Virus record (IMG/VR): IMGVR_UViG_2713896907_000006 | Coordinates: 1 to 34,373 of that record | DNA from: a virus | Lineage: Duplodnaviria; Heunggongvirae; Uroviricota; Caudoviricetes | Length of the DNA: 34,373 nucleotides | Direction: 5' to 3' (one strand) | Part shown: piece by piece, positions 332 through 27,700 of the stretch | How the letters are laid out: each line of letters starts with the position of its first letter | Numbering within the stretch: position 1 is the first letter of the stretch | The notes under the pieces: model-generated | What the model saw: the letters and a program-made list of their open reading frames with translations, nothing else | Databases searched by the model: none | What the model was told of the DNA's origin: nothing | Translations under genes and position numbers: made by a program

Positions 332-592
332 TTAATTCTGAGGTAAAGGCAAACTCATCTGATTGTTTCCCCTGTGTGAAGCTGGCAGCTCATGCCACGG
401 GATACCTTCTGAAGAGTGAACGCCGGAGGCGTGTTTCGATGTGAATTTATGGAAAGCTTCCAGTGTTGAGAAGCATACGCCGCATTCCAGATTGTTACAC
501 TGGTAATACTTTTGCCGCACGGTGTTTGAATCATTTTCCGGACGACTGGTGCGGATACGGGCAGATGCGCCACAAAGCGGACAACGGAACAT
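332..592 (-). CDS. ogr: Ogr/Delta-family zinc-finger late transcription activator
   Basis: Translation starts MFRCPLCGASARIRTSR and continues to YYQCNNLECGVCFSTLE: the CxxC...CxxC zinc-finger arrangement and N-terminal sequence match P2 Ogr. The ORF is somewhat longer than the roughly 72-aa P2 protein. Confidence 0.85.
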   Translation of the reverse strand: MFRCPLCGASARIRTSRPENDSNTVRQKYYQCNNLECGVCFSTLEAFHKFTSKHASGVHSSEGIPWHELPASHRGNNQMSLPLPQN

Positions 593-883
593 AGCGACCT
601 CCCTTAACGTAATGTTGGTGCCATTCTAAGTTGTACTGGTTCAGACTTTAACTGCCAATGAGTTTTGAGCAACAAACGAAAAATGATACGTCTAGCGAAG
701 TGGTTAAAATTATCTATTAATAACGAATCACCTCTTCTGGATTAATGTCGGAAATGAGACTGCCGGTGCCACATCAATAGTCTCTTTCATGCGACACCTA
801 TCTCTATTTGATAATCAGTGCATTAAATGTAGTGAAGAGTATATTTCATCACTTCAAATAATAAAATAAATCACCTGTTATCA

Positions 884-3055
884 CTATTTTAAGCTAATTG
901 TTGCATCTCTTAAATAATATTTTTTCCCATCTGCAATGCTCTTAAGTACAGCTTGAATGCGAGTCGGATGCTTTGAAATATCTATGTTTTTAGCTTTATT
1001 TCTAACCTCATCTACATCAAGTATTTCCCCGAAATAATGTTCGTCAAAAATAACATAAGGGCCATTCGTTGAATCTCTACCAGTTTCACCAATAATTTCA
1101 CACAATCTAATTATGCCATCTTCTGATAAGATGGAAGCAAGAAATTCTGATGTGAATTCAACAGAGATTCTCTTTAATTCGAAAAATATATTTGATTCTA
1201 GATGATAGTCAAAAAATATTTTTTTATTTAAAGCAATAGTAGCTGTTTCTTTGAAGGTATTCTCAAGTTCAACAATCTGATCTTTATTAATCTGTATATT
1301 ACTTGAGTTTCGTACGTTGTATAGTACTTCTGCTCCAAGTGGCGCATTCTCATATCGACCAATAATTTTTTTTATTAGCTCATATTGCTCACTACTTTTA
1401 GATATAATTTTATCAGTGAGCCAATACATCCTTCTATAAGGATCTTCTCTAATGAGACCATAGTTTTTTTCTAATGAAGATTTTAACTCTTGAGAGAAAA
1501 GAAATCTATCATAAATGCACGTTAATATATTAAAACTATCAACTTTACAACAAGCGTCTGTATAAATATTCATCATTTCGAAAAATCTTTCCTCGGCATT
1601 TTGAGATAACACATCCTCAAGGAATTTTTCTCTATTAATTTTCCCTTCGATGAAAAGAAGAATGTCATGATCGGAAATATATCCTACTGGAGTTTTAAAA
1701 TGAAGGGCAATATGAAGTCTTTGGGGGGCAGAAATTCTTCCTGCTGCATCTGAGTCAGATACATCATAAGGATAAGATTGATTGGGGCGTAGAAGAGGGA
1801 AAATATACTCTAATAGCCCCTGCATCAATGTACGTTCTCGTTGAGAAAAAATATTTAGTTTATTGCATCGTTCATGGCTATAATGCTCTATAATATCTTG
1901 ATGTTTATTCATTAACAAATTATTGATGGTTAATCTATTCCCAATGTACGCTTCAGGAGTATTCTTTATATGCTCATAAATTAAATTTGATTTGGTTGCG
2001 ATTAGAGATAAAGAAAAAAGATCTGAAGAACACACCTGACCTTTAATTTGCTCTAAAGTAAATCTCAAGTGGTTGAAAAACCTTTTCAACTCTCTTGGAT
2101 TATTAATTAATTGCTTGAAATAATTATGGTAAATCCAATCTAATCTTTCTTGATCTTTTTCAAATTTATCAGTTAAAAAACTATCACCTAGTTTTTCAAA
2201 CTCTGAATTTGCGATTTCATTCAGTCCTCTTTCTGAAATTACGGGAAGTGAAACTCGAAGTTGAACAATCTTATTAATATATTCTGACGGATTTATAATG
2301 TTATTTTTATCAAGCACAGAAATTAGGTAATTAGGATCAAATGCAAGTAAAAAAGAAGTGCCTGAGAAATTCGCAACAGCTTTGACTAACCGTAAAACTT
2401 GAAAAGCCTCAGAGGGTGTTAAACGATCAATATCATCAATTATTACAATTATAGGATGTTTTATTTTTTTTATCGCATTAGCCACTTGTTTTTTTCTATC
2501 TAAAAGATCAAGTTTTTTTAACTCAGCTATTTTTTTAGTAGCATGTCCAAAGCTTGAAAGAGATTTTTCTATGATAGATGCCCATGGTTCTGCTCCAGGG
2601 ATAAGTTTAGCAGCACTAAAGAGGCTAGAGTATGCAATTAGCTCTTTTGATACTTTTAATGCAACTTTTGATTTGTCTTTAATATTTAGTTGTGAAGAAA
2701 ACTGCAATAAAAAATCTTGAATCAAGGATTCAGGTTGGCCAGCCAACCATGGATTATATTCTATTATAATGGGTAAGGAGTCCTTTTCATTTAAGGCATT
2801 TTTTATAAGATTTATGACTGACGTTTTACCATATCCCCACTCAGCCTCTATAGATACAGTGAAACAATCATCGTCGTTATTTAATAGTAAAATATTTGCC
2901 AAATTATTTGCAAAAGTAAGTCTATTTAGTAAGTCTGGATCATTTTGACCGCCTAGTATAGGTTGGTCATTATGATATGCTCTCATTTTTAAACTCATCC
3001 ATTTAAATAAAGCAATCATAGAGATGTTGCTATTAATATTATAATATAGCCACAA
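884..3055 (-). CDS. KAP-family P-loop NTPase (about 700 aa), accessory cargo gene
   Basis: Walker A-like AEWGYGKTS, Walker B-like IIVIIDDIDRL, and the KAP-typical NPRELKRFFNHL motif, followed by roughly 370 aa of unassigned C-terminal sequence. The gene and both flanks are strongly AT-rich compared with neighbouring phage genes. True start is probably an internal ATG near 2986. Confidence 0.8.
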   Translation of the reverse strand: MWLYYNINSNISMIALFKWMSLKMRAYHNDQPILGGQNDPDLLNRLTFANNLANILLLNNDDDCFTVSIEAEWGYGKTSVINLIKNALNEKDSLPIIIEYNPWLAGQPESLIQDFLLQFSSQLNIKDKSKVALKVSKELIAYSSLFSAAKLIPGAEPWASIIEKSLSSFGHATKKIAELKKLDLLDRKKQVANAIKKIKHPIIVIIDDIDRLTPSEAFQVLRLVKAVANFSGTSFLLAFDPNYLISVLDKNNIINPSEYINKIVQLRVSLPVISERGLNEIANSEFEKLGDSFLTDKFEKDQERLDWIYHNYFKQLINNPRELKRFFNHLRFTLEQIKGQVCSSDLFSLSLIATKSNLIYEHIKNTPEAYIGNRLTINNLLMNKHQDIIEHYSHERCNKLNIFSQRERTLMQGLLEYIFPLLRPNQSYPYDVSDSDAAGRISAPQRLHIALHFKTPVGYISDHDILLFIEGKINREKFLEDVLSQNAEERFFEMMNIYTDACCKVDSFNILTCIYDRFLFSQELKSSLEKNYGLIREDPYRRMYWLTDKIISKSSEQYELIKKIIGRYENAPLGAEVLYNVRNSSNIQINKDQIVELENTFKETATIALNKKIFFDYHLESNIFFELKRISVEFTSEFLASILSEDGIIRLCEIIGETGRDSTNGPYVIFDEHYFGEILDVDEVRNKAKNIDISKHPTRIQAVLKSIADGKKYYLRDATISLK

Positions 3056-3375
3056 AAAAACTCAAAATTTGCATATTGAGCATAAACACATAACATCTAA
3101 GCAACGCTGAAAATTTATAACGAAAATCACCTAAAAAAACAAGTCTGTTATGCAAAGCTCATCGTGGCAGGTATGGCTTTGAGCACACTCGGTCAACTAT
3201 CTCTATTGATACTGAGTGGGGATTTGACAAATCACTATTTGACTGAGCTTTTCGGGGAGATAAACACATAGCGCTGTCATAAATTTTCGCTCTTGGTGCA
3301 GAAGTGACTGGCAGATCAGGTTTACTCTGTGTCGTAAGTGTTCCGCCCATGTTTAATCTAATGTATCAAAATTGC

Positions 3376-4485
3376 TCACTCTGTTTCTGCTATCCATTCT
3401 GGGATTTTTGCTTCAAGCTCAAGCTGCGTGGTAAAGCCGCTGTTATCAATGGTGTGCTCGGTTTTCGCAATAATCCAGTCCTGATTATCAATCTCGCTTT
3501 TAAATCCTGTTACCGTGCCATGCATTTCGGGGTAGAGTTCTGCGCGTCCACGTGCCAGCATGATGGAGAATGATGCGGCTCCGCGTTGTAGCTGCTGCCA
3601 CTTTGCCGCCGCTGCGCGTCTTGCTGCCTGCTCGTTCTGATAAGTCTTGCGTAACACAAACACATTGCCTTCCGCGCCTTCCATATAATCACCTTCACGG
3701 CTGCTGCTTTTCTCCTTTTTGGGTTTTGGCGGTTTGCGGCGTTTCACGCTGACTTTTTTCTTTTTCCCGTAATTAAGATCAAGCCAGTAGGCGCGTACAC
3801 CCGTATACGCCTCGCGGTCAGCAATGCGGAACTGATGGCGATCGCCGCTGCTGCGTGTGATGGCAAACGATGGCAATGGTTTTCCCTGCGCGTTCACGCC
3901 ACCACCTGGCATAATGAATAACAGATTACCGCTTTTTACCGTGGTGATTGCGCCCAGCATTTCCGCCATGCGTGTAAGGAAGGACATGTCGCTTTCTTCG
4001 GTCTGGTCGGCGTGGTCGATTTCGATATCCATCAGCATTTCGCTGATTTGCGGTTTCAGGCCGTATCGGTGAGCAATTGCAGACACCACGCGTTCAACGG
4101 TCACATCATGCCAGGATACTTCGCGCTTGACGTTAAATTCATCCCGAAAATCTGCGCTTCTGGCTGAAATGGTCAGTCTGTCGGGCGGTCCTTCATGAGC
4201 AATTTCATCAACAATGTAAGTGCCTTTTTCTGTCAGCGGTTCGCCTTTCCAGCCAATGAGAACCGTCAGGCGAGCTCCCCGTGGCGGCAACTGCAACTGA
4301 CCATCAGCATCATCCAGCGTGATGGTGAGCTGGTCTGCTTCAAATCCCCGGTTGTCGGTCAGTGACAGGCTCATCAGGCGTTCTGCCACACCGGATAGCG
4401 TTTTCCCCTCCGCGAGAATATCAAAATCAGGCATCTTCACGGGGTCAGTACTCTGGTTGAACAGTTGCATGGTGGTGTCAATCAT
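3376..4485 (-). CDS. D: Tail protein gpD (late control gene D family)
   Basis: Translation from MIDTTMQLFNQSTDPVKMPDFDILAEGKTLSGVAERLMSL matches P2 gpD along its length, including the lysine-rich KKKKVSVKRRKPPKPKKEK segment. Start chosen at the ATG at 4485, preceded by a GGGAGGGAG ribosome-binding site; the ORF track extends further upstream to 4617. Confidence 0.85.
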   Translation of the reverse strand: MIDTTMQLFNQSTDPVKMPDFDILAEGKTLSGVAERLMSLSLTDNRGFEADQLTITLDDADGQLQLPPRGARLTVLIGWKGEPLTEKGTYIVDEIAHEGPPDRLTISARSADFRDEFNVKREVSWHDVTVERVVSAIAHRYGLKPQISEMLMDIEIDHADQTEESDMSFLTRMAEMLGAITTVKSGNLLFIMPGGGVNAQGKPLPSFAITRSSGDRHQFRIADREAYTGVRAYWLDLNYGKKKKVSVKRRKPPKPKKEKSSSREGDYMEGAEGNVFVLRKTYQNEQAARRAAAAKWQQLQRGAASFSIMLARGRAELYPEMHGTVTGFKSEIDNQDWIIAKTEHTIDNSGFTTQLELEAKIPEWIAETE

Positions 4486-9726: not shown

Positions 9727-10221
9727 ATGGCCATGATGATGATCTACGGCATGTTTGTTTTTGAGCTGCGCACATTGCCGCATCAGCAGTTACAGCAAAA
9801 CAAAAGCTGGCGGCATGTGAAAAATGAACGCGTTAACCGTTCAGCAAGCTGGCAGTATATCGGTGCAGGTGATGATCGCATCGTTCTTTCTGGTGTGCTT
9901 TATCCTGAAATTACAGGTGGCGAAGTGTCGCTGTCGCTGCTGACCACGCAGGCGTATACAGGACGCCCCTGGCCTCTTATTGATGGCGTCGGGCAGATTT
10001 ACGGCATGTATGTCCTGACCGAAGCGAATACGACCCGTTCCGAGTTTGATCGCTACGGTAAAGCGAAAAAGATAGAATTTTCACTGACCCTTGAACGCTG
10101 TGATGAGGATTTGCGGGAGCGCCTGCAATCCTCATCGTTCAGCGATATGCTGTCCGGCTTCAAAGATAAGGTGACATCATCTCTTAACAGCGCGGGCAGT
10201 TCAGTTAAAGGGTTGTTCTGA
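9727..10221 (+). CDS. U: Tail protein gpU
   Basis: 164-aa product (MAMMMIYGMFVFELRTLPHQQ...) directly after the tape measure gene; matches P2 gpU in size and position. Confidence 0.85.
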   Translation: MAMMMIYGMFVFELRTLPHQQLQQNKSWRHVKNERVNRSASWQYIGAGDDRIVLSGVLYPEITGGEVSLSLLTTQAYTGRPWPLIDGVGQIYGMYVLTEANTTRSEFDRYGKAKKIEFSLTLERCDEDLRERLQSSSFSDMLSGFKDKVTSSLNSAGSSVKGLF

Positions 10222-10230
10222 TTTAACACA

Positions 10231-10265
10231 AAAACCGCTAATGGTCAGATTAGCGGTTTTTTCTT
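10231..10265 (+). terminator. Rho-independent terminator after gpU
   Basis: 9-bp stem ACCGCTAAT / ATTAGCGGT with a 6-nt loop, followed by TTTTTTCTTTTG, about 10 nt after the U stop codon. Confidence 0.75.
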
Positions 10266-10515
10266 TTGTTGAATCTTCTCGCTTGTCTGAAGTGGCTCGT
10301 ATTGTGTCCTGACGAGAAAGAGCCGATAAACTAACATCATAACAATCGCGATCTGCTTTCGCATTCTGTCGTCAGGAACCCAAAATTTGTTTTCGTAAAT
10401 CTGCATTATCTATTCTGGTTGTTTCACATAATAACTTGTATACTCCAATATTATCCATAACCACTAAGACTATTTTAAGTAAATTCAGGTTGAAGGATTC
10501 TAAGGAATAATTTCT

Positions 10516-11235
10516 ATGTTAATAGTTTCTGTACTACGTTGCGGTAAGGATTTTACGCCAAAGCATGCACAATGGCTTCATAAACAATTTGGCTCAATGC
10601 CATCAGTCTGCTTAACGGATGCTGGATATATTGATGGAGTGGACACTGCGCCATTGTTATTTGATTGGCCTGGTTGGTGGTCAAAAATGGAATTGTTCAA
10701 CCCCAATCATCCAGTAATTGGAAATCATGATATTTTATATTTTGATATTGATGTTGTTATTACAGGAAAATTAGATGCTTTTGCAAAGGCTAAAAACTTC
10801 ACCATGCTTAGGGAGTTTAATCATCATGGGCGAGTTAATTCATCAATTATGATGATCCCAGTATCTGCAAAGCAAAAAATATGGGATGCCTTTACTGCCA
10901 ATCCTGAGGAGATAATGCAAGAGTGTCGAACTGAAGATAAATGGGGAGATCAAGGGTTTATTGGTAGCATAACAAAACCTGATTTGTGGCAGGATATTAT
11001 TCCTGGTGCAATTAAAAGTTATAAGTGCGATATAGCAACAAAATCAATGATTGGATATAACCCAGATCTCGCATCAAAATCAGCAACAGGAAAAATACCT
11101 AATGGTGTTTCGGTTGTATGCTTTCATGGTAGTCCGCGCCCTTGGCGTACTGGTTTTAAATGGGTTCCATCTTTATCGTTAAAAGACTCTCTCTATGGCA
11201 AAGTAAAAAATCTAAAATTAAAGATTAAGCGTTAA
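10516..11235 (+). CDS. Hypothetical protein, AT-rich moron at the P2 Z/fun-equivalent locus
   Basis: 239-aa ORF in a markedly AT-rich segment between the tail operon terminator and gene G. No family recognised with confidence; contains a hydrophobic strand followed by FDIDVV, a DxD-like arrangement that could indicate a GT-A-type nucleotide-sugar transferase. Confidence 0.7.
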   Translation: MLIVSVLRCGKDFTPKHAQWLHKQFGSMPSVCLTDAGYIDGVDTAPLLFDWPGWWSKMELFNPNHPVIGNHDILYFDIDVVITGKLDAFAKAKNFTMLREFNHHGRVNSSIMMIPVSAKQKIWDAFTANPEEIMQECRTEDKWGDQGFIGSITKPDLWQDIIPGAIKSYKCDIATKSMIGYNPDLASKSATGKIPNGVSVVCFHGSPRPWRTGFKWVPSLSLKDSLYGKVKNLKLKIKR

Positions 11236-11261
11236 TATAAGGGAGGACATCCTCCCTTATA
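11236..11261. terminator. Perfect 11-bp stem hairpin filling the gap between the convergent moron and gene G
   Basis: TATAAGGGAGG-ACAT-CCTCCCTTATA spans exactly the 26 bp between the two stop codons; probable bidirectional terminator. Confidence 0.65.
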
Positions 11262-11828
11262 TCATGGTTGAATAGGCCAAACAGGATCAAAAATATCAAC
11301 ACGATTTAACTGTATTCGATAATTCTTCCAGGCGTTCAGTAACAATGCTTCTTCTTTCGTTGCAATCTCCAGATCTACAGCATCCAGAAGTGGCGCAATA
11401 TGTTCATTAGCCAATTGCATCAGTCTGTTTTTTGTTTCTGCCGCTTCCCGTATCCGAAACAGTTTTTCTGCTTCTGCATCTTTCACCCAGGCTGTGCCGT
11501 TCCACTTCTGAAACTCCCCTTCCGGGGATAACCAGGTGACATGTTCCGGTAGCGGTCCGAGTTCAGAAATAAATAACGCATCCCCTGATGCCACGTCATA
11601 AACCGTTTTACCCCGATGGTCTTCAACGAGATGCCACGATACATCCTCACTGTTGAAAACAGCCACAAAGCCAGCCGGAATATCTGGCGGTGCAATATCG
11701 GTACTGTTTGCAGGCAGACCTGTATGAGGTGGGATGTATGCATCACCTTCACCAATAAATTCATTAGTTCCGGCCAGCAGATTATAAATTTTTATGGTCC
11801 GTGCTTGTTCACTCATTCTGAATGCCAT
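11262..11828 (-). CDS. G: Tail fibre assembly chaperone gpG
   Basis: 188 aa; C-terminal segment [26 protein letters not shown] resembles the P2 gpG C-terminus; located directly downstream of H. Confidence 0.8.
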
Positions 11829-26740: not shown

Positions 26741-27700
26741 TTACTCCTTGTCCATTGCGTACAACCCATTAACCAGAGCAAACTGTGGCACTCCGTCCGC
26801 GATGAAAGTCGCATTAACTCCGCAGGCTTCGCGGATAGCGGGTGCCACAATCTCCGCCCCTCCACCGACAACCATCACCCGCCCGTAACCGGAAAAACCC
26901 GCCAGCGCGCGGATCACGCGTTGTTTCAGTGTTTCTTCCTTTTCACGAATCACCGCCATCAGGCTGGCGTAATGCGCGTCATTGTGGATGTGCTGGCGCA
27001 GCCAGGCTTCATCGTGGCGATGTTCGATAATAGTATTGGCGATGTGGTGACTGGTGCGCATACCGTTAGTGGCCATCACCGACAGTACGGCATCGGCCAT
27101 CAGAGAAACGCCTACGTGTGGATCGCAAAACACCTGGCTGATACCTGCCAGTTGCCCCTGAACCTTTGCCACATCCAGCGTGGTTCCGCCCAAATCCACA
27201 ATCAGCAGGGATTCAAACGGACTCATGTCAGCCAGTGCTTTAAAGCCAGCCGGAATGGATTCAGGCATAACCCGCACGTTACGGATAGTGAATGCCTCAC
27301 CGTTCTGGTACTCCACCGGGCGCATGACGTTCGCTTTTTTGCGGTTGATGTTGGCCATGTCCGGCTGTGCGTTTGTGTCGAAATATTCGCTCAGTGGCAG
27401 GGTGACAACCACATCTACTTCCTGTGGTGTGATGCCTGATTTGACCAGTGCGTGGTGAATGGCGATTACATTCACATCGCTGTACTGGTATTGCGTGTCG
27501 GTCGTCTGGACAAAGCGATCGCTGACCGGATCAAAACCATAGCGCACGCCATCAAGCATGTAGTTCGCAGGCTGCGAGCCACCGAATGGCGCAGACCATT
27601 CCGACTTGAAGCTGTTCGGGCTGATGGCGTTGCGGCGTTCGCCGTTCTCACTCCATGCCAGCTTGATGTTGGTGGAGCCGTCGTCGATACAAATTTTCAT
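26741..27700 (-). CDS. parM: ParM-like actin-type partition ATPase (plasmid R1 ParM/StbA family)
   Basis: MKICIDDGSTNIKLAW...ISPNSFKSEW...YQYSDVNVIAIHHAL...VMPESIPAGF...LLIVDLGGTTLDV...VMVVGGGAE closely parallels R1 ParM along the whole length. Confidence 0.9.
   Translation of the reverse strand: MKICIDDGSTNIKLAWSENGERRNAISPNSFKSEWSAPFGGSQPANYMLDGVRYGFDPVSDRFVQTTDTQYQYSDVNVIAIHHALVKSGITPQEVDVVVTLPLSEYFDTNAQPDMANINRKKANVMRPVEYQNGEAFTIRNVRVMPESIPAGFKALADMSPFESLLIVDLGGTTLDVAKVQGQLAGISQVFCDPHVGVSLMADAVLSVMATNGMRTSHHIANTIIEHRHDEAWLRQHIHNDAHYASLMAVIREKEETLKQRVIRALAGFSGYGRVMVVGGGAEIVAPAIREACGVNATFIADGVPQFALVNGLYAMDKE

Follow-up and report, generated by a model that had tools for sequence, protein, structure and literature searches.

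The interval between D and ogr

The stretch of DNA analysed here (the window, 34,373 nucleotides (nt), positions 1 to 34,373 of IMG/VR virus record IMGVR_UViG_2713896907_000006) is a P2-family prophage of E. coli, with hok/gef (1-141) at one end and the integrase (33231 onward) at the other. Its tail gene D is separated from ogr, which encodes the activator of late genes, by an AT-rich segment carrying a single large gene, the product of which is a P-loop NTPase of the KAP family. This segment, the gene and its protein are considered below; the elements at the locus, in window coordinates, are as follows.

593-3375, no strand: AT-rich cargo segment filling the D-ogr slot; recognised from GC content, absent from Chuche, P88 and P884B11, with other genes in its place elsewhere
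884-2986, minus strand: PifA-like KAP NTPase gene, 700 amino acids (aa); the open reading frame (ORF) is open to 3055 and the RefSeq start is at 3019
2994-3000, minus strand: Shine-Dalgarno-like GGATGAG, 7 nt before ATG 2986, read from the sequence
3038-3065, minus strand: sigma-70-like promoter, TTGAGT-16-TATAAT, upstream of the KAP gene; top-scoring site of a scan, 10/12 matches
332-592, minus strand: ogr, late-gene activator, flanking core gene; Pfam Ogr_Delta, 5e-14
3376-4485, minus strand: gene D, tail/baseplate hub, flanking core gene, 369 aa; Pfam Phage_GPD, start taken from relatives

The limits of the interval are exact, position 593 lying just past the ogr start codon and position 3375 just before the D stop codon; the D ORF listed up to 4617 is over-extended, and D itself occupies 3376-4485. 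The GC content of 593-3375 is 0.324, compared with a mean of 0.533 (standard deviation 0.037, minimum 0.436) for 565 equal-sized windows drawn from the rest of the window (z = -5.7), and GC at third codon positions is 0.22 in the KAP gene vs 0.62 in the sheath gene. The base composition of the segment is foreign, and the strong AT-richness described in an earlier note, made from the sequence alone, is borne out.

The single large KAP protein reported in the same note is likewise present, in that one long ORF, 884-3055 on the minus strand, holds all three of the motifs it quoted, AEWGYGKTS, IIVIIDDIDRL and NPRELKRFFNHL. The true start of the gene is most likely ATG 2986, because distant homologues begin there, GGATGAG is located 7 nt upstream, and most gene callers chose it; the commonest called product (cluster P0001, 145 member sequences) has 700 aa. 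A 36-nt inverted repeat, with arms at 2825-2860 and 3196-3231, is 78% complementary (core 21/25 identical) and longer than the other inverted repeats of the region; its upstream arm is an inverted copy of the Walker A-coding segment of the KAP gene (TISIDTEWGFDK vs TVSIEAEWGYGK).

An NTPase domain followed by a predicted solenoid

The protein divides into two halves, the second of which is described from a structure prediction.

2057-2917, minus strand: KAP-family P-loop NTPase domain, Pfam KAP_NTPase
2819-2836, minus strand: Walker A, GYGKTS, residues 51-56 (700-aa numbering), from the sequence
2420-2452, minus strand: Walker B, IIVIIDDIDRL, residues 179-189 (700-aa numbering), from the sequence
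887-1951, minus strand: predicted C-terminal all-alpha solenoid, about 355 aa, with a small beta element and the conserved motifs G..G.DS..G.Y and KYYL.D at its end

The match to Pfam KAP_NTPase (PF07693) reaches 161.6 bits (cut-off 20; E = 3.3e-47) and spans profile positions 3-289 of 293. In a family alignment of 38 sequences, 23-75% identical to the query, W61, G62, G64 and K65 of Walker A are nearly invariant, as are D196, D198, R199 and L200 of Walker B, where D195 is invariant; the NPW motif and the PR..KR..N helix are also invariant or nearly so.

Transmembrane insertion of the KAP protein was considered and ruled out, no transmembrane segment being found in the 700 aa (the top 19-residue Kyte-Doolittle value is 1.27). 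Transmembrane helices beside the NTPase domain are typical of many members of the KAP family but not universal in it, and PifA, a KAP protein discussed below, is without them (PMC13001434).

The AlphaFold2 model of the 700-aa protein (predicted local distance difference score, pLDDT, 86.3; predicted template modelling score, pTM, 0.78) confidently predicts that the C-terminal half is a HEAT/ARM-like helical solenoid without an enzyme fold. The approximately 355 aa concerned have no family match in Pfam, NCBIfam or PADLOC, in agreement with the earlier description of the C-terminal region as unassigned, and a fold search of BFVD returned giant-virus KAP and AAA proteins only.

Relation to PifA

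PifA, the phage T7 exclusion protein of the F plasmid, is a namesake of the KAP family. The top PADLOC match of the protein encoded in the window is the PifA model (217 bits, E = 1.4e-64), limited to positions 3-352 of the 720 in the profile, whereas authentic IncF PifA scores 854.6 bits on the same model over positions 4-718. BLASTP aligns only the N-terminal part of the two proteins, 363 columns at 25% identity. Orthology with PifA was therefore ruled out, the match being confined to the N-terminal half and no pifC being present.

Comparison of profiles extends the similarity further. When the C-terminal halves alone were aligned with hhalign, a probability of 85.5% (E = 5.8e-6) was obtained over 190 collinear columns at 14% identity, with a PifA profile made from only 2 sequences; two controls, in which an N-terminal was aligned with a C-terminal half, gave a probability of 0.1%. 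The full-length profile alignment with PifA is collinear up to the C-terminal G..G.Y motif. This evidence, which is at the level of sequence profiles, supports the view that the KAP protein may be remotely related to PifA over its full length and share its overall architecture.

Homologues and their genomic contexts

Full-length homologues of approximately 706-710 aa and 62-75% identity are present in E. coli, Salmonella, Enterobacter, Klebsiella, Yersinia, Serratia, Vibrio, Aeromonas, Shewanella and others. In an exhaustive search, 14,771 cluster representatives reached E <= 1e-3, and 762 of these reached E <= 1e-30. Many representatives match over the full length, at 25-50% identity.

The exact allele of the window always lies between D and ogr in a prophage beside ihfA, including at two IMG/VR loci (L028, L031); the exact protein occurs in 82 blocks of an assembly collection, and the context was the same in all 24 contigs read. 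A clade of E. coli homologues, 74% identical, occupies another position, between DinI/gpA and the portal gene of 186-like prophages, and nucleotide homology between the two E. coli clades stops at the ORF borders, so the mobile unit is the KAP gene alone. P2-like phages have their main defence hotspot in this gpA-portal interval (PMC9122126, PMC13586616). Homologues in this hotspot, from Serratia, E. coli and P2-like prophages of IMG/VR, are 64-87% identical; in Serratia marcescens the homologue is the only cargo of the interval, and four IMG/VR contigs carry homologues downstream of gpA, three of them between gpA and the portal gene, the fourth contig ending within the KAP gene. In Vibrio parahaemolyticus the homologue stands alone in the chromosome, next to a small variable region.

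In the 186-like prophages of E. coli (L020-L023, 8642-9796) the 74%-identical homologue stands next to a gene for a 384-aa RES-domain protein, which has no PADLOC match, is not conserved with the KAP gene elsewhere and may be an independent defence or toxin gene; in E. coli CT29, IS903B and other genes follow the KAP homologue in place of the RES gene. No neighbouring gene is conserved across the D-ogr slot, the gpA-portal hotspot and the Vibrio chromosomal context.

More distant KAP genes (21-31% identical) were observed in further P2-like IMG/VR contigs (L041, L058, L060, L061, L063), where they occupy the gpA-portal interval, the junction of the head and tail modules, or a place close to D and U. 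As judged from these sequences, KAP genes appear to be recurrent cargo of the P2-like phage family. Among plasmids only distant KAP domains were found.

A hypervariable slot with conserved ends

The DNA flanking the segment matches the P88-like phages Chuche, P88, Xuanwuvirus P884B11 and Citrobacter phage Shae_phiSM at 94-95% identity by megablast; FI, FII, E, T and U are encoded on the plus strand, D and ogr on the minus strand. By sequence the phage is P88-like (Xuanwuvirus, Peduoviridae), and the canonical P2 framework in which the locus had earlier been placed has to be given up. In E. coli strain 100181 the prophage is integrated beside ihfA.

The nearest relatives (Chuche, P88, P884B11 and Shae_phiSM) are without the approximately 2.7 kilobases of cargo, the D-ogr gap in Chuche being 42 base pairs (bp). 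Other phages carry different genes at this position, i.e. a weakly HEPN-like 340-aa gene on the other strand in phage 500465-2 and a 132-aa gene in phage 520873. About 1,500 of 5,426 complete E. coli genomes match the D-ogr region, of which only 3, strain 100181 among them, have the KAP cargo, in copies 98.9-99.8% identical. At least 12 other cargo types are found in E. coli prophages whose flanks are approximately 93-95% identical; slot cargo in E. coli includes GmrSD_N with HNH, PIN_4, DUF2971 (PADLOC candidate PDC-S31) and DUF3800 proteins, as well as ParA-family, YecA-family and several hypothetical proteins (some without any family) and insertion sequence elements. In an evenly spaced sample of the ranking, the slot was empty in about 25 of the 43 rows containing both flanks.

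Because relatives are empty or have different genes there, the D-ogr junction is a genuine hypervariable cargo slot, of which the KAP gene is a rare occupant, and 593-3375 is almost certainly acquired cargo. The earlier note had proposed horizontal acquisition and had suggested comparing the interval across related prophages; the comparison upholds the proposal. The slot in the P88-like prophages of E. coli is a largely unannotated hotspot. A literature search found nothing specific on it, or on the KAP protein, in P88-like phages or Xuanwuvirus.

The ends of the slot are marked by the following elements, one of which overlaps a short ORF.

634-680, no strand: ogr-side slot end, about 45 bp, homologous between unrelated cargo, from alignments
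3270-3375, no strand: D-side slot end, about 100 bp, homologous between unrelated cargo, from alignments
623-633, plus strand: direct repeat copy ATTCTAAGTTG, ogr side, from alignment; the empty site has a single copy
3364-3374, plus strand: degenerate second repeat copy TATCAAAATTG, D side; CATCTAAGTTG in most other filled slots
623-651, minus strand: probable ogr promoter, TTAAAG-17-TAGAAT, in the conserved ogr-side slot end, read by eye
3159-3350, minus strand: 63-aa ORF, judged spurious; no family match, frame broken in other slots

In all filled slots examined, the two ends (about 45 bp on the ogr side and about 100 bp on the D side) are kept across cargo types; they were not found at any other locus compared. 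Both ends finish in copies of (A)TTCTAAGTTG in direct orientation, one copy of which is present at an empty site (L005, 2123-2133). This pattern would be accounted for by a cassette that was inserted long ago and duplicated its target, or by a deletion that arose between the direct repeats. It might be that a mechanism dedicated to cassette exchange mobilises the D-ogr cassettes, which have conserved ends and are flanked by a direct repeat of 9-11 bp. At the slot termini, inverted repeats are weak (31 nt, 71% complementary, the longest only in the GmrSD slot), and inverted repeats of 22-27 nt and similar identity occur also inside the AT-rich slot regions. A conserved RNA structure in the D-side end was considered and is unsupported (-2.6 kcal/mol). 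The probable -35/-10 pair of ogr, supplied by the ogr-side end, is TTGGAG-17-TAGAAT in most other slots.

The ORF at 3159-3350, for which a role as partner of the KAP gene or a spurious origin had both been entertained, is of the latter kind. It has no match in Pfam, PADLOC or PHROG and is unannotated in RefSeq; it overlaps the non-coding slot end conserved between slots with unrelated cargo, where the homologous stretch has stop codons in its frame and the ATG is not conserved; and it is not carried along with the KAP gene in other contexts. On these grounds a partnership was ruled out.

Other features of the prophage

A second AT-rich island, at 10200-11400 (GC 0.36-0.38), lies between gpU and the tail-fibre genes. 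It contains an ORF (10516-11235, plus strand) of 239 aa that matches PHROG 1962 (glycosyltransferase, moron category), has no Pfam or PADLOC match, and is probably a lysogenic-conversion gene in a Z/fun-type slot. The gpA-portal interval of the window phage (25173-27700) carries a ParM-like actin gene (26741-27700, minus strand; StbA_N, ParM_N) and small unannotated ORFs, and no recognisable defence gene was found in it. At the prophage end past ogr, the hok/gef-family toxin gene (1-141) lies in DNA approximately 84% identical to a region of many Stx-converting phages.

Proposed function and alternatives

The favoured explanation is that the segment is a one-gene accessory insert (moron) in a slot of a P88-like prophage, the soluble KAP protein of which, with a PifA-type architecture, would defend the lysogen against other phages. 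An anti-phage function as such is, by analogy, probable, and the fuller account just given a shade less so; a specific PifA-like mechanism is possible but doubtful. Triggered by gp1.2 and gp10, PifA aborts T7 infection, and the membrane depolarises and leaks nucleotides (PMC8594841, PMC13001434). In the proposed sequence of events, the KAP gene would be transcribed in the lysogen from its own sigma-70 promoter, and the solenoid would recognise a protein of the superinfecting phage. Recognition would switch the NTPase, which by analogy with RdrA is probably oligomeric, and infection would be aborted without a dedicated enzymatic effector domain, by a PifA-like collapse of membrane or energy or by consumption of nucleoside triphosphates (NTPs). 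Extending this scheme to a large PifA-like clade of effector-less defence proteins, in which a HEAT-like solenoid would sense and a KAP oligomer would stop infection by NTP drain or membrane perturbation, is tentative.

The proposal of a candidate single-gene anti-phage module, made in the earlier note, gains strength from the hotspot recurrence, the lack of a conserved partner and the relation to PifA, and is unproven. The accompanying remark, that no characterised function was known for a KAP protein in this phage context, needs amending, given PifA and the single-gene KAP defences validated in 2026 (PMC13552941, PMC13586616).

Several observations weigh against a defence role of this type. 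The family to which this protein belongs is absent by tblastn from 50,697 deposited phage genomes, and a literature search found no experiment on the KAP protein or a close homologue. The PADLOC PifA model covers only half of the protein, the C-terminal similarity to PifA is modest (85.5%, 14% identity, with a PifA profile from two sequences), the NCBIfam QatA model scores 45.8 bits against a cut-off of 600, and neither PADLOC nor NCBIfam calls the protein a complete known system. Promoter-like sites in the AT-rich region number 14 vs 12.6 expected and are not enriched over shuffled sequence, so promoter function for the KAP gene is only inferred. No effector domain is visible in the protein, and the killing or blocking step is therefore purely inferred. 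With respect to precedents, PifA acts against a very narrow range of targets and doubts have been raised about what its primary role is (PMC8594841, PMC13552941), and the Enterococcus KAP system that was tested is reported not to act by abortive infection (PMC13552941), so the mode of defence of the KAP protein is uncertain.

It is unlikely that the gene is an accessory gene without a defence function, e.g. one regulating the assembly or disassembly of host complexes, one for lysogenic conversion, or one interfering with plasmids or satellites rather than with phages. Such roles would accord with the original proposal that KAP NTPases regulate membrane-associated complexes and with the questioned primary role of PifA (PMC13552941, PMC8594841). 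The slot also carries ParA-family and YecA-family proteins that do not look like defence proteins, other AT-rich inserts of the prophage are not defence genes (e.g. the glycosyltransferase at 10516-11235), and none of the genes called around the chromosomal Vibrio homologue is recognisable as one of a phage or mobile element. However, the family of this protein recurs in the gpA-portal hotspot, whose characterised cargo is mostly antiviral (PMC9122126), nuclease, PIN and RES domains are frequent among the neighbours and slot alternatives, and the only KAP proteins of the same architecture with a known phenotype are anti-phage. It is very improbable that the sequence is what remains of an earlier insertion, now decaying or inactive. 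The rarity of the cargo (3 of the 5,426 complete genomes) and the inverted copy, in the 36-nt repeat, of the Walker A-coding segment upstream of the gene, which hints at past rearrangement, would fit a relic, but the 700-codon ORF is intact with all catalytic motifs conserved, copies in different strains are 98.9-99.8% identical, the protein recurs in 82 assembly blocks with 24 of 24 contigs read in the same context, and the structure prediction is confident.

The possibility that the protein is the sensor or ATPase half of a multi-component system, inert alone and with its partner elsewhere in the host or prophage (compare RdrA-RdrB and QatA-QatBCD), is improbable, less so than a relic and more so than a non-defence role. 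It would account for the absence of a visible effector domain, the weak QatA matches and the closest solved structures being those of RdrA, which needs the deaminase RdrB, and the 384-aa RES-domain gene after the homologue in E. coli 186-like prophages could be seen as a partner. The RES gene is, however, absent in the window phage, Serratia and Vibrio and replaced in CT29; no neighbour is conserved; the KAP gene moves between slots as the ORF alone; and PifA, Reve and the Enterococcus KAP proteins function as single genes.

If a defence function is confirmed, a widespread gammaproteobacterial family would join the short list of single-protein KAP NTPase defences, and would be linked to PifA, described decades ago, whose mode of action still awaits an explanation; P88-like prophages would also gain, in their D-ogr junction, a further defence-type hotspot. 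A compact, soluble, single-gene PifA-like family would, if real, offer a tractable route to the mechanism of PifA-type exclusion. Current concepts are unchanged, since single-gene defences in prophage hotspots and KAP defence proteins are both established.

Comparison with known systems

PifA (748 aa) and the KAP protein of the window (700 aa) are similar in size, and both have an N-terminal KAP NTPase, in which the Walker A, NPW and Walker B (DDxDRL) motifs agree, a helical C-terminal half and no transmembrane helices. The modest profile alignment of the C-terminal halves is collinear, the terminal G..G.Y motif included. Both are encoded on mobile elements, and PifA acts as a single protein. 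By contrast, identity is only 25% in the N-terminal and approximately 14% in the C-terminal half, the gene considered here is phage-borne whereas pifA is plasmid-borne, and the pifC repressor gene lies directly upstream of pifA on the IncF plasmid, with nothing comparable at the KAP gene.

Reve, which comes from a hotspot of P4 satellites and consists of one KAP gene, protects E. coli (PMC13586616), and KAP NTPases with uncharacterised C-terminal regions protect Enterococcus, where Walker B and the C-terminal region are both required (PMC13552941). Like the KAP gene of the window, Reve (likened by its description) and EF_KAP are single-gene KAP NTPases with an uncharacterised C-terminal region in mobile-element hotspots. 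The differences are that EF_KAP has two transmembrane helices, where the present protein has none, and that these systems are hosted by P4 satellites or Firmicutes, not by a P2-family phage.

The closest solved structures are those of RdrA of RADAR (PDB 8fnt, 8fnu), and an RdrA-like ATPase fold is present. Identity to RdrA is, however, 11-12%, there is no sequence-level match to any PDB chain, and the C-terminal region differs; the gene for the RdrB adenosine deaminase is not adjacent, the only neighbours being D and ogr. RADAR and Qat were rejected because their partner genes are absent, i.e. RdrB in the former case and qatBCD in the latter, for which the QatA score is in addition below threshold.

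As to its location, the D-ogr slot resembles the classical accessory hotspots of P2-like phages (old/tin in the gpA-portal interval and Z/fun in the tail genes), where low-GC single genes or small operons between core genes are swapped between near-identical phages and are rich in defence genes; the slot of the P88-like phages is not among these classical two. Defences that consist of one KAP NTPase protein (PifA, Reve and the Enterococcus KAP fusions) and prophage hotspots with single-gene cargo are already known; the family considered here has no complete match in PADLOC, NCBIfam, PHROG or, beyond the KAP domain, Pfam, and is only remotely related to PifA.

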